19,497 bases of DNA, from the UHGV virus genome UHGV-0127427, one strand, 5' to 3'. The notes under the pieces are model-generated. The model did no database searches, was not told where the DNA came from, and was given only the letters and a program-made list of their open reading frames with translations. Of the stretch, positions 16,466-19,497 are shown one piece after another (position 1 is the first letter of the stretch; each line of letters opens with the position of its first letter). Position numbers and translations under genes: made by a program. Source of the stretch: a virus.

Positions 16466-16603
16466 TCACGGACTTCGTTGCTTTCCAGTTCTGCTATCCA
16501 TAAAAATGAAATGGACGCTAACGCCAGCTTTTCGCTGTGCTTCCATCAGATGAACGAGATAAGCCGATGTTCGTCCACCTGAAAAGCTGACGACTTGATG
16601 CAT
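16466..16603 (-). pseudogene. 5' remnant of a PP-loop (PAPS-reductase-like) gene, 45 codons then stop
   Basis: Encodes MHQVVSFSGGRTSAYLVHLM... carrying the SGGxxS PP-loop signature, but terminates after 45 codons; the remainder of such a ~250-aa domain is absent. Confidence 0.4.
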
Positions 16604-16612
16604 ACTCACGGT

Positions 16613-17191
16613 TTATTCCTGAATGCGCTTAAACTCGATTACCCATACCAACGGGTTAGATAGCCAGTTATCCTGCCCGTAAATACTGCGCCAGATATCA
16701 CCAAAACCAACGCGATAAACAGCTTCAGATGGCGTAATCTTGTACGTCGCCGGAGTTGCGCCTTCTGCTTTAGCATCTTCCTCGCTCATGTCATGCAGCC
16801 GTTCCACACGCACGTCGGTAATTTCCAAAAGAATGCGCGATGCCCAGCGCGGCATGTGAATTGATGGCGTCCACTTTTCTGATACTGGTTTATTACAAAC
16901 CTCGACCGGAACCCGGTGCGTTTGTTCTGTCCAGGAGTTACGCACGCTTGCGCGATAAACCAGCGTTGCGACGTCCGTCGCTTTGCCATGTACCCGGTAG
17001 GTTTCGCGAACCCAAATACGATCGCCCGGTTGACCATATGGACAATGCTTGGCAAGCAACTCTGCGGCCACTGCCCGTCCATAGAATTTTTCTTCAACAA
17101 TCCTGCGAGTCTGTGTTTTATTCCCGCCAAGAATTGCCCGGACCATCTCATCGTTAAAAATCATGCCGCGCTCTTTCACTTCGCCTTTCAT
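16613..17191 (-). CDS. hypothetical protein with ASCH/PUA-like N-terminal motif, 192 aa
   Basis: N-terminal MIFNDEMVRAILGGNKTQTRRI resembles the ASCH-domain GxKxxExR signature; AGGGGGA precedes the ATG at 17191. Confidence 0.45.
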   Translation of the reverse strand: MKGEVKERGMIFNDEMVRAILGGNKTQTRRIVEEKFYGRAVAAELLAKHCPYGQPGDRIWVRETYRVHGKATDVATLVYRASVRNSWTEQTHRVPVEVCNKPVSEKWTPSIHMPRWASRILLEITDVRVERLHDMSEEDAKAEGATPATYKITPSEAVYRVGFGDIWRSIYGQDNWLSNPLVWVIEFKRIQE

Positions 17192-17200
17192 GCATCCCCC

Positions 17201-17287
17201 TTACCCATGTGCGACGATGCCGCCAAAAGTGATAGAGAACAGCCAGAAATAGATCGCGGCCATAATGATTTTGAATGCCGTGTTCAT
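17201..17287 (-). CDS. small hydrophobic peptide, 28 aa, translationally coupled to the downstream ASCH-like gene
   Basis: MNTAFKIIMAAIYFWLFSITFGGIVAHG; CAGGAG 8 nt upstream of the ATG; its stop overlaps the RBS of the next gene. Confidence 0.3.
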   Translation of the reverse strand: MNTAFKIIMAAIYFWLFSITFGGIVAHG

Positions 17288-17315
17288 ATTTTCAGCTCCT
17301 GTGATTGATTGGATA

Positions 17316-17346
17316 CATGCCGCGCCTTGCGGCATGTTTTTATTTT
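17316..17346 (+). terminator. plus-strand terminator-like hairpin (CAUGCCGC-GCCUU-GCGGCAUG followed by UUUUUAUUUU)
   Basis: 8-bp stem, 5-nt loop, T-rich tail on the plus strand, 4 nt after the GATTGATTGG motif; both flanking genes are on the minus strand. Confidence 0.4.
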
Positions 17347-17369
17347 CACTTTCTCTGTTTTAAAAATCA

Positions 17370-17386
17370 TTATTTATTAGAGCAAT
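17370..17386 (-). promoter_or_regulatory. C1 operator-like site upstream of the small-peptide/ASCH unit
   Basis: Minus-strand sense ATTGCTCTAATAAATAA (15/17), overlapping the stop of the HAD-like gene. Confidence 0.6.
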
Positions 17387-17892
17387 TATTGTTGATGGAG
17401 AAGCGCGTTTTCATACTCCCTGACCATTAACGTAAGCACGCCGTGCCTCCTGAAAACACGCGCCACTTCAATCTTATCTTCCAGCGCGAACGCAATTTTG
17501 CTTAGACCAATTTTCTTAAGGAGATCAATCTTTGCTGGACCGTCATTTCTGTCATCGGTGGCGGGACGCATAGATAGCAAAGGCTCTGCCCCATTTGTTA
17601 CGTGCTTACGCAACCAGGCTCGTGTTTTATCCCTGGCTATCTCACAGCGCCCGGTTACAAACCAGAGCGTGTAAATGCTGGACAACTGGCGCACCATATC
17701 AATAACTGGAGTGATGGAAGCATCAGTGTCACAGGCAAGGTTAAACTCGTTCCAGTGCTCTGTTAATGCACCGTTGCCAGGCGGTGGAAGTAAATGCAGC
17801 CTGTCTTCCGTTGCCTCCGATATCGTTCCATCAATATCTACTATGACAATGTACGGACGTTCCTGGTGTGCGTGTTTATTGAAAATACTCAA
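17386..17892 (-). CDS. HAD-superfamily phosphatase-like protein, 168 aa, TTG start
   Basis: HAD motif I DxDGT in IVIVDIDGTISEA; TTG start preceded by GAGGAGG at 4 nt; no ATG alternative nearby. Confidence 0.55.
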   Translation of the reverse strand: MSIFNKHAHQERPYIVIVDIDGTISEATEDRLHLLPPPGNGALTEHWNEFNLACDTDASITPVIDMVRQLSSIYTLWFVTGRCEIARDKTRAWLRKHVTNGAEPLLSMRPATDDRNDGPAKIDLLKKIGLSKIAFALEDKIEVARVFRRHGVLTLMVREYENALLHQQ

Positions 17893-17911
17893 ATGCCCTC
17901 CTCATTGGACG

Positions 17912-17942
17912 AAAAAAATGCTGGTGGGCGCACTCCACCAGC
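17912..17942 (-). terminator. intrinsic terminator downstream of the 420-aa gene
   Basis: Minus-strand sense GCUGGUGG-AGUGCGC-CCACCAGC followed by AUUUUUUU. Confidence 0.5.
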
Positions 17943-17964
17943 ATTAAAAGTGACACTGTAACTA

Positions 17965-19227
17965 TCAGCGAACGTAAATAGTGCCGCCGTTCACTTTTTC
18001 CCATGCATCGCTAAGTGCATAGCAAACATCAAGAAGTCTTCTTGCCGCTGTTTCCTCTAAACCCAATTCGACAACCAACTGCTCATGACGGCGGGTAACC
18101 ACATCAAACAGGGTATGCAGCCCTTTAGCTGCCAGATCATCAATAAATTCCGGTTCGAACGGCAGCTCTGCATCTGCCAACATAACCTCTTGCGCCCACT
18201 CAACTCGACGGACCAGTTCCGGGCGGCGGCTTTCCATCTCTTTACAGATCAATTCATGGAAGAACTCTACCCAACCTTCCGGCTGGAACTCGCGGAAAAT
18301 TGCCAACGGCTGGAAGTTTGGCATCAACCATTCGTTGATTCGGATATCAATGGCATAGCCCATGTCGCAGCAGAACTGATAAGCAAAGTCCAGCTTAGAA
18401 ACGATATAAGGACGCTCGTTATTGAACTCTTTAGGCGATGAGATCCCATAAGCCAGGAGGCGCGGGAAGAATGAGATTTGCCCTAACGTCGGATGGAGTT
18501 TGCTTGCAGGAAAACGGCGCTCAGTAATGCCATACATTTCCTTCTTGAGCGTCGCAAATTTAGCATTTTCATTAACCAGCGCGGTAACCTCTGCTTTTTT
18601 ATTAGCAAATGCCACGCGCGCTTCGCTTGCATCTTTAATAGTTTTTTTGAGCTGTTGGTTAAGATCGGCGACCTGCTTACGCAGTTCCTGTCGCTCGCTT
18701 TTAGCTTTGTTATAGCGTTTCTCAAGGTTAAAAGGATCAAGTTTCATGATCTCTTTATATTGAGATTTTAGCGTTGAAATCTGTGAGTTCCGCAGTTCAA
18801 CCATCGCGGTCATTTCATTGAGTTTTGTTTCCAGCTCAATGCTTATACGTTCGGCATTATCAGCACGCTGGTTGGCGTCATGCGTCGCATCGTCGATCGC
18901 GTCCTGTTGCTGGCGTTTCAAATGTTCAATTTGCAGCTGAAGCTCTTCAATTTCTTTACCCTTCAGACCGAGATCCAACTGCATATTTTCAGCTGCATCT
19001 ACCAGGGAGTTATGGCTATCAGCTTCTGCGTTATAAACATCAATAAGCTGTGCGTGAAGCATCTCCGCTGACTGAACCGCATTATCAAAAAAACGCGCTG
19101 TGAGGTCATCACAACTAACGCGGCGTTGCGCGGCCCGGATGTTCTGGATAATGGCCGGGATACCGGCATTCAGGACGTCAGGGATAGATACATTTTCGAT
19201 TGATTGGTTTTGTGCTGAAGTGCTCAT
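17965..19227 (-). CDS. hypothetical protein, 420 aa, long central coiled coil plus globular C-terminal region
   Basis: ATG 19227 lies 1 nt after the upstream 72-aa ORF stop; central ~200 aa are heptad-rich (E/K/Q/L); no catalytic motif recognised. Confidence 0.55.
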   Translation of the reverse strand: MSTSAQNQSIENVSIPDVLNAGIPAIIQNIRAAQRRVSCDDLTARFFDNAVQSAEMLHAQLIDVYNAEADSHNSLVDAAENMQLDLGLKGKEIEELQLQIEHLKRQQQDAIDDATHDANQRADNAERISIELETKLNEMTAMVELRNSQISTLKSQYKEIMKLDPFNLEKRYNKAKSERQELRKQVADLNQQLKKTIKDASEARVAFANKKAEVTALVNENAKFATLKKEMYGITERRFPASKLHPTLGQISFFPRLLAYGISSPKEFNNERPYIVSKLDFAYQFCCDMGYAIDIRINEWLMPNFQPLAIFREFQPEGWVEFFHELICKEMESRRPELVRRVEWAQEVMLADAELPFEPEFIDDLAAKGLHTLFDVVTRRHEQLVVELGLEETAARRLLDVCYALSDAWEKVNGGTIYVR

Positions 19228-19228
19228 T

Positions 19229-19447
19229 TCAAAGTTCCGTATTAGCTTGTGCTTCGGTCATTTTTCCTAAGTATGAAGGAGGAAGGACTACGCAATTTGT
19301 ATCCAGTCCCTCACCTATGGCAGCCTGTAAAATTCTGGCTAAGGTGAGTCTCTTGTTGCGATACCTGGTGATGACATGCCTGATACCGCCGGTCGGCGTA
19401 ACAAAGGCGATCAGCCAGTAGTGATATTTCCGTCGGAATGGCCACAT
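19229..19447 (-). CDS. hypothetical protein, 72 aa
   Basis: ATG 19447 preceded by AAGGTG at 4 nt; coupled to the 420-aa gene. Confidence 0.4.
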   Translation of the reverse strand: MWPFRRKYHYWLIAFVTPTGGIRHVITRYRNKRLTLARILQAAIGEGLDTNCVVLPPSYLGKMTEAQANTEL

Positions 19448-19461
19448 AGTGCACCTTGTAG

Positions 19462-19478
19462 ATTGTTCTAATAAAAAA
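19462..19478. promoter_or_regulatory. C1 operator-like site upstream of the 72-aa/420-aa unit
   Basis: ATTGTTCTAATAAAAAA (13/17) about 15 bp upstream of the 72-aa gene start. Confidence 0.4.
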
Positions 19479-19497
19479 CGTTATGAGTGTACATCAC

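Follow-up and report, generated by a model that had tools for sequence, protein, structure and literature searches.

Three minus-strand genes near the right-hand end of UHGV virus genome UHGV-0127427 (19,497 nt; this whole stretch of DNA is referred to as the window) were analyzed. In a sequence-only reading, they had been described as an operon of unknown function, in which an operator-like site preceded a 72-residue protein, a 420-residue coiled-coil protein and, behind a terminator, a protein with HAD motifs. The three open reading frames (ORFs), with a gap of 1 nt between the first two, were found exactly where this reading had placed them. Its statement that none of the genes was a nameable P1 function was wrong, because sequence comparison makes it essentially certain that they are pmgR, pmgS and pap of a P1/P7-like phage-plasmid. 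The locus is already known and named. The following features were located in this region:

19462 to 19478, plus strand: C1 operator Op86b (OpmgRb), ATTGTTCTAATAAAAAA, from the P1 annotation mapped on the window and a P1/P7 alignment
19229 to 19447, minus strand: pmgR (P7 name shtA), ORF of 72 aa with an ATG start
17965 to 19227, minus strand: pmgS (P7 name shtB), ORF of 420 aa with an ATG start
18532 to 19107, minus strand: coiled-coil part of PmgS, residues 41-232 (two long helices), from AlphaFold2 secondary structure
18178 to 18525, minus strand: conserved alpha/beta domain of PmgS, residues 235-350
17989 to 18165, minus strand: C-terminal domain of PmgS with a predicted tandem helix-hairpin-helix, (HhH)2, fold, residues 355-413
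17909 to 17945, minus strand: intrinsic terminator between pmgS and pap, from a terminator scan, an RNA fold and a Chi search
17896 to 17903, minus strand: Shine-Dalgarno sequence of pap, GAGGAGGG, read from the sequence
17386 to 17892, minus strand: pap, ORF of 168 aa with a TTG start
17370 to 17386, minus strand: C1 operator Op88, also called Op(hea), ATTGCTCTAATAAATAA, from a pattern search and the P1/P7 annotations

A megablast search with positions 16500-19497 returned Punavirus records at 96-98% identity, among them P1, P7, SJ46, RCS47 and JL22, and the features lying under the match in these records were pmgR, pmgS and pap. The comparison of the locus across P1-like genomes that the sequence-only reading had proposed was thereby carried out: the pmgR-pmgS-pap block was present in 19 Punavirus records at 97.5-98.2% nucleotide identity, and the window has the gene order and gene lengths of P1 and P7. 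The reference counterparts are P1 pmgR-pmgS-pap (NC_005856, 82232-84293) and P7 shtA-shtB-pap (AF503408), both at 97.5-98% identity, and the P1 RefSeq annotation lists pmgR (72 aa), pmgS (420 aa) and pap (168 aa) in the same order. When the products were compared with the P1 proteins, 72/72 residues were identical in PmgR, 416/420 in PmgS and 158/168 in Pap; nine of the 168 Pap positions differed besides the start codon, and the TTG start was the tenth difference. The stop codon of pmgR (TGA, 19229-19231) is separated by one base from the ATG of pmgS at 19227. The window as a whole has the P7/SJ46-like arrangement of this P1 region, namely mod/lxc, cre, c1, pacAB, lpa, phd-doc, humD and pap-pmgS-pmgR.

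The operator-like site that had been noticed in front of the genes is the C1 operator Op86b with one substitution. In a three-way alignment, position 5 of the operator is T where P1 and P7 have C (ATTGTTCT... vs. ATTGCTCT...). Six matches resembling C1 operators were observed in the window against 0.10 expected. Another of these operators, Op88, overlaps the stop codon of pap, has two mismatches to the C1 operator consensus and controls the next operon downstream. In the P1 annotation, which lists no late promoter here, the monovalent C1 operators Op86a and Op86b bracket PpmgR, a predicted sigma-70 promoter; Op86a and PpmgR would fall approximately 30-50 bp past the end of the window. A late (Lpa-dependent) promoter or a neighborhood of structural genes would point to virion proteins; the former is missing from the P1 annotation, and the neighbors in 24 non-redundant loci of PmgS relatives are recombination, replication, integrase and methylase genes. 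Judging from the P1 annotation, C1 would silence the operon in the plasmid prophage, and expression would begin early once the phage has been induced or has infected a cell.

Just past the pmgS stop codon, at 17948-17964 on the minus strand, the sequence AGTTACAG...TTTAAT has a loose resemblance to the -22 box and -10 element of the annotated P1 late promoter LPhot (AAGTTACTT N9 AATAAT). This box was rejected as a candidate late promoter, since the resemblance to LPhot is loose, the box lies upstream of the terminator and no P1 promoter is annotated there.

The terminator between pmgS and pap, followed by a strong ribosome-binding site and a TTG start, was also present as the sequence-only reading had claimed. 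The terminator scan detected an 11-pair stem with six G-C pairs and a loop of 7 nt (17945..17917, compared with 17912-17942 in that reading), followed by TTTTTTT, and RNA folding of the pmgS-pap intergenic region gave the same hairpin. The arms of the stem are two inverted Chi octamers, GCTGGTGG, at 17935-17942 (minus strand) and 17920-17927 (plus strand), and the hairpin sequence is unchanged in P1 and P7. In total, 19 Chi sites (8 plus, 11 minus) were found in the window, whereas 0.43 were expected; this richness is in line with the 50 Chi sites published for P1 (PMC12315714). The inverted pair may be a functional bidirectional hotspot, or it may be tolerated because it forms a good terminator. 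The sequence GAGGAGGG lies four bases 5' of the pap TTG at 17892 and makes a strong ribosome-binding site. With this site of its own, pap would be a downstream add-on to the pmgR-pmgS core, presumably reached by read-through of the terminator.

The HMM search of the product of pap confirmed the suggested HAD assignment. Pap matched the Pfam family PF25109 (HAD_PNKP) with 43.8 bits against a cut-off of 27.6, and its HAD motif I is D19-I-D21-G-T23, accompanied by T80, K121 and E138-D139. Except for E138, all of these residues (D19, D21, T23, T80, K121 and D139) were invariant in comparison with a homologue at 31% identity. When a profile built from three Pap sequences was compared with known structures, the matches were the phosphatase domain of T4 Pnk (5uj0, 2.1e-8), Pnkp1 (4xrp, 3.3e-8) and T4 Pnkp (1ltq, 1.3e-7), the last of these alignments being limited to residues 183-297 of the 301-residue T4 enzyme. 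Likewise, among the PHROGs families labelled 'polynucleotide kinase' that matched Pap (phrog_415 and phrog_505), phrog_505 was covered only over profile positions 156-292 of 295. No P-loop 5'-kinase domain, as possessed by T4 Pnkp, was found in the 168 residues of Pap. From its sequence, therefore, Pap is homologous to the 3'-phosphatase half of T4 Pnkp and stands alone, and the frequent database label '3'-phosphatase, 5'-polynucleotide kinase' overstates it because the kinase half is absent. By analogy with the T4 phosphatase half, Pap would remove 3'-phosphates from broken nucleic acid ends.

The homology and structure searches recommended for the 72-residue and 420-residue proteins identified them as P1 PmgR and PmgS and pointed to an (HhH)2 domain in the model of PmgS. 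This model was built with AlphaFold2 from an alignment of 68 sequences and had a predicted local distance difference test score (pLDDT) of 87.6. It bears out, at the level of prediction, the coiled-coil plus globular architecture that had been suggested: a helix at residues 15-36 is followed by long helices at 41-160 and 168-232, an alpha/beta domain at 235-350 and a five-helix C-terminal domain at 355-413. The protein is acidic, with a net charge of -15, and the PmgS family as a whole ranges from -12 to -15. The alpha/beta domain carries the family motifs LDF..., R-I-N-E-W-L-x-P and P-x-L-V-x-R-x-E-W-A, and no convincing structural relative of it was found in PDB or BFVD; in the latter viral structure library, PmgS had no match at E <= 0.001. 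When the first PmgS model, made from a shallow alignment (pLDDT 70.7), was compared with PDB by Foldseek, the HhH part alone matched.

Sequence searches with PmgS returned little besides its coils. The PDB sequence search gave coiled-coil noise only, and neither PmgS nor PmgR had a match above threshold in Pfam, NCBIfam or PADLOC. Within PADLOC, PmgS matched LmuB over the coil alone (E 1e-4), and Pap, PmgR and the neighboring ORF had no match. With SMC/Rad50 models, only coiled-coil matches of 14-19 bits were obtained, compared with cut-offs of 300-1000, and ABC-type ATPase heads were not found; the PmgS model contains no nucleotide-binding domain. The possibility that the central domain contains a PD-(D/E)xK nuclease site was rejected, since the D-[FW]-H-x-E-x-R motif of other subfamilies is replaced by A-Y-Q-F-C in P1 and none of the acidic residues is invariant. 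The PHROGs family matched by PmgS, phrog_1660, is labelled 'PmgS-like head morphogenesis'.

In the predicted model, the C-terminal domain shows two helix-hairpin-helix motifs in a five-helix fold, which is the arrangement that defines (HhH)2 domains. Pfam matches to HHH_5 or RNA_pol_A_CTD were obtained for approximately 20 of the 68 PmgS relatives (HHH_5 in 11/68), and AF1548-like_C was matched as well. The PmgS of the window had no HhH match in Pfam and lacks the G-h-G signature. Its second hairpin reads LGLEE, and the P1 clade has this or a similar sequence, compared with a canonical KG[IFM]GxKTA in most subfamilies, and the net charge of the domain is about -7 in the P1 clade compared with about -1 elsewhere. 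In the P1 clade, the (HhH)2 module may therefore bind a protein partner, as NusA AR2 does, rather than DNA.

Close relatives of PmgS were confined to P1-like elements, and an exhaustive profile search collected 121 clusters at 50% identity, 84 of which had E <= 1e-10. The genomic contexts of distant members were obtained by exact-protein look-up and by scans of IMG/VR with two subfamily alignments; the scans yielded 68 loci, which came down to 24 after removal of redundancy at 90% identity. In a BLAST tally, 14 of the 24 non-redundant IMG/VR loci had a RecE/ExoVIII-type exonuclease and/or a RecT/SSAP (single-strand annealing protein) gene no more than four genes upstream, and in 10 of these 14 the recombination exonuclease or annealase was the immediate upstream neighbor. 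A PHROGs scan of the three nearest upstream genes gave RecE-like exonuclease, exonuclease VIII, other exonucleases and RecT/SSAP as the commonest families. Representative architectures are ExoVIII-RecT-PmgS-like, SSAP-RecE-PmgS-like and exonuclease-144aa-PmgS-like. The isolated Aeromonas phage phiARM81mr is organized as cI ... exoVIII-RecT-int-58aa-PmgS-like-151aa-Dam, and locus L006 has a comparable arrangement. In two other loci (L012 and L007), the PmgS-like gene lies beside an O-like replication initiator and ParA/ParB, and in a 65-kb element one subfamily is flanked by a divergent O-like replication initiator on one side and by ParA/ParB on the other; in L008, the PmgS-like gene follows a VRR-NUC nuclease gene. 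Downstream of PmgS-like genes, integrases, methylases and PHROG 874, the family of the window ORF at 16613-17191, were found. No head, tail or packaging gene was seen adjoining any family member in the contexts examined. Literature searches retrieved no functional study of PmgS, of Op86 or of a PmgS-type gene in Rec modules, and the family goes unmentioned in a 2025 survey of lambdoid Rec modules.

PmgR matched phrog_3177, a family of unknown function, and had no Pfam match. In L003, L005, L008, L010, L016, L083/84 and L086, a profile search with PmgR found a small homologous ORF directly upstream of the PmgS-like gene, with E values of 3e-37 to 2.5e-4, and the accompanying PmgS was in some cases only ~20% identical. 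A PmgR-like gene thus precedes pmgS in at least eight divergent lineages, including P1; in the RecET-linked and Rep-linked subfamilies, other small ORFs occupy this slot. The motif [KR]R[VI]x(1-2)DD[LM] at the N terminus of PmgS was detected only in PmgR-bearing lineages and is looser in L083 and L086, a correlation that is not phylogenetically independent. A GC-rich hairpin right behind the pmgS stop codon was also found in L003 and L005. Taken together, these data suggest that pmgR and pmgS form a conserved bicistronic unit. A Pap-like gene accompanies other PmgR-PmgS pairs only sometimes and in a non-adjacent position (L005).

Several further observations were made around these pairs. In a distant phage-plasmid (L008, 7599-7892), the PmgR homologue can carry a hydrophobic C-terminal extension resembling a transmembrane segment. 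The upstream neighbors in such phage-plasmids include the VRR-NUC nuclease (L008, 6913-7389) and a protein with a Tad2-like Thoeris anti-defense domain (L010, 7102-7665), and all of these genes, the PmgR homologue included, lie downstream of a gene for a DarB-like giant methylase/helicase.

Published deletions show that the genes of the operon differ in their importance for P1. In-frame deletion of pmgR reduced the titer to <10^2 PFU/mL (plaque-forming units), the defect was rescued by pmgR in trans, and PmgR was needed for complete virions, with heads that are filled with DNA and joined to tails; deletion of pmgS or pap left plating normal and anti-restriction against EcoA, EcoB and EcoK unaltered (Gonzales et al. 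2022, PMC9024508). In the same study, PmgR, PmgS and Pap were absent from the LC-MS/MS list of virion proteins, HHpred returned nothing for PmgR, and the ΔpacA packaging control also accumulated proheads and tails (PMC9024508). In a dCas12a CRISPR interference (CRISPRi) screen, pmgR (efficiency of plating 0.94), pmgS and pap were all scored as non-essential, and pmgR was counted among five 'missed' essential genes; the dCas12a roadblocks were polar on downstream genes (PMC10695390). Consequently for the sequence-only reading, its idea of a structural role for the 420-residue protein is contradicted by the proteome and by the harmless deletion of pmgS. Clear homology to well-characterized P1 morphogenetic or replication genes, which by its own account would have refuted it, was found only by half: the homologues are named 'putative morphogenetic', and an experimental phenotype exists for pmgR only (PMC9024508). 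A defense-related role finds no membership in PADLOC, and an anti-defense role is conceivable. A role in partition had been mentioned as well; it was rejected as unlikely because C1 represses the operon in the plasmid prophage state. In addition, no NTPase domain was found, and ParA/ParB genes are no more than neighbors of some distant relatives.

Considering these data as a whole, it is moderately probable that pmgR-pmgS-pap is an early, non-structural operon for handling DNA or RNA ends. Its core would be the translationally coupled pmgR-pmgS pair, closed by the intrinsic terminator. PmgS would be dispensable and act early, assisting phage DNA transactions such as recombination, replication or the handling of concatemers, and would not be a part of the head or sheath. 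Its (HhH)2 module would dock onto DNA or, more probably in the P1 clade, onto a protein partner, and PmgR would work with or on PmgS through the N-terminal R-R-V-x-x-D-D-L segment of the latter. Because the ΔpmgR phenotype resembles that of the ΔpacA packaging control, the block that leaves empty or incomplete heads alongside tails would lie at or before DNA packaging and would not reflect a missing structural piece.

Several points weigh against this explanation. For a link of PmgS or PmgR to DNA metabolism, gene neighborhood is the sole positive evidence, biochemical and genetic data not being among it, and accessory genes of many kinds are gathered in the early-left regions of temperate phages. 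There is no Rec module in P1, which relies on host RecA/RecBCD and Chi (PMC12315714), so the association with RecET may not carry over to it. Direct DNA binding by P1 PmgS is doubtful on sequence grounds, given the lost G-h-G signature, the LGLEE hairpin and the negative charge of both the domain (-7) and the protein (-15). PmgR, with a mass of ~8 kDa, may have escaped mass spectrometry merely through its size, and in the P7 record the genes bear the names of sheath functions.

The annotations themselves suggest a morphogenetic operon, in which PmgR and possibly PmgS would take a direct part in virion assembly as a head completion or neck factor, in head-tail joining or as a sheath factor. Small proteins of ~70 aa are typical of head-completion factors, for example lambda gpW. 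The P1 label is 'putative morphogenetic function', P7 shtA and shtB are described as 'sheath structure or assembly' and 'sheath contraction', and PHROGs has the 'PmgS-like head morphogenesis' label cited above; the rescue of the ΔpmgR defect in trans also speaks for a morphogenetic role (PMC9024508). However, the records carry no evidence behind the sht names, proteome analysis of virions detected none of the three products, and ΔpmgS had no defect. Moreover, the promoter is a C1-repressed sigma-70 promoter and not an Lpa-dependent late one, relatives of PmgS occur in recombination and replication neighborhoods and never among structural genes, and the ΔpacA packaging control gives the same phenotype as ΔpmgR. 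Direct participation in assembly is considered unlikely. The contrast between the lethal, non-polar in-frame deletion of pmgR and the harmless deletion of pmgS has another possible explanation, namely that the two genes behave like an antidote and a poison. PmgR would then be essential only to restrain or direct PmgS, free PmgS would block the filling or completion of heads, and loss of both proteins would be harmless. Being polar, the dCas12a roadblock at pmgR should reduce both pmgR and pmgS, yet the efficiency of plating was 0.94, and a small upstream gene translationally coupled to a larger downstream gene, strict adjacency in eight lineages and co-variation of the PmgS N-terminal motif with the presence of PmgR fit the same idea. 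On the other hand, the same screen missed mat, repL, 25 and 26, so that an ineffective roadblock or a low requirement for PmgR explains its outcome equally well, and the two studies were performed on different phage backgrounds (P1vir and P1CMclr100). Pfam and PADLOC searches showed no homology to toxin or antitoxin families, and one PmgR homologue (L085 / P0056) has no adjacent full-length PmgS, although it lies on very short contigs. Such a pair is judged rather improbable.

An involvement in counter-defense or host takeover appears very improbable. According to this explanation, Pap would heal ends cut by abortive-infection nucleases, as T4 Pnkp acts on PrrC-cut tRNA, and PmgS would inhibit a DNA-binding enzyme or a defense complex of the host as a mimic of DNA or protein. 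It agrees with the membership of Pap in the T4 Pnkp phosphatase family, with the strongly acidic character of PmgS, and with early expression of genes that are dispensable in laboratory hosts. Relatives are found near DarB-like anti-restriction genes, the L010 relative adjoins the Tad2-like protein, and in RecET phages the PmgS-like gene holds the slot of the Gam/Abc-type inhibitors of other Rec modules (PMC12315714). The knockouts, however, had unchanged anti-restriction against EcoA, EcoB and EcoK, a kinase domain is missing from Pap and a ligase partner was not seen in its vicinity, and matches to PADLOC or known anti-defense families were limited to sub-threshold coiled-coil ones. P1 needs RecBCD and is rich in Chi (PMC12315714), and for this reason a RecBCD inhibitor is unlikely in P1 and this role of PmgS was rejected.

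A broader proposal may be added tentatively, though it is more likely to be wrong than right by a wide measure: PmgR-PmgS would be a widespread early phage-plasmid module with PmgR as an obligatory controller, and the PmgS family would be an unrecognized accessory of RecET modules and of phage-plasmid replication regions. If this were true, pmgR would be 'essential' in P1 for the sole reason that PmgS, when unrestrained, blocks the packaging of the genome or the completion of heads. The gene counts among just five P1 genes newly found to be essential, and its essentiality may be conditional, a point that would bear on the streamlining of the P1 genome and on engineering work or insertions in this region. 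Irrespective of this proposal, the 'head morphogenesis' label for PmgS is unsupported because the knockout, proteome and family neighborhood data disagree with it, and this label has been spread by PHROGs and RefSeq to many phages.

Downstream of pap, the match to P1 stops near 17136 and that to the P7-type records near 16782, in what is one of several known variable regions of P1-like phage-plasmids. The minus-strand ORF at 16613-17191 (192 aa) is a homologue of P7 Upf86.8; it belongs to phrog_874 and has a weak, sub-threshold ASCH match, and its P7 homologue is labelled 'DNA primase' by RefSeq. Members of phrog_874 were found within three genes downstream of PmgS-like genes in 5/24 unrelated prophage loci, which suggests a loose linkage. 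On the plus strand, antisense to the genes, a 10-bp GC-rich hairpin followed by TTTTATTTT was found at 17315-17337, between Op88 and a 44-residue ORF (17201-17335) annotated as 'membrane protein' in SJ46. It would stop antisense transcription only and also lies within the 5' leader of the downstream operon.

Comparison with known systems places the parts of the locus as follows. The accessory genes of Rec modules, lambda Gam and P22 Abc1/Abc2/Arf, occupy a slot comparable to that of PmgS-like genes in many temperate phages, adjoining the exonuclease/annealase pair, and likewise encode dispensable helical proteins; PmgS nevertheless has no sequence or fold similarity to them, and P1 itself has no Rec module. 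Relatives of PmgS match, at the Pfam level, the (HhH)2 domains of the RAD51/RadA N terminus, NusA AR1/AR2, the RNA polymerase alpha-CTD (C-terminal domain) and the AF1548 C terminus; in comparison with these proteins, the PmgS domain is acidic like NusA AR2, and the remainder of PmgS is without a counterpart. Pap differs from T4 Pnkp (PDB 1LTQ, 5UJ0) and from Pnkp1 of Pnkp1-Rnl-Hen1 RNA repair (4XRP) in the absence of a P-loop kinase domain, in an insertion of ~30 residues after motif I and in having no ligase gene nearby, whereas the DxDxT nucleophile and the Thr, Lys and Asp motifs of these enzymes are kept. With P1 and P7 themselves, the window shares the genes, their order and spacing, the terminator and the operators, at 97.5-97.6% nucleotide identity, and it departs from P1 3' of pap, where it carries the 'hea' gene set of P7, SJ46 and RCS47 in place of pmgT-pmgV.

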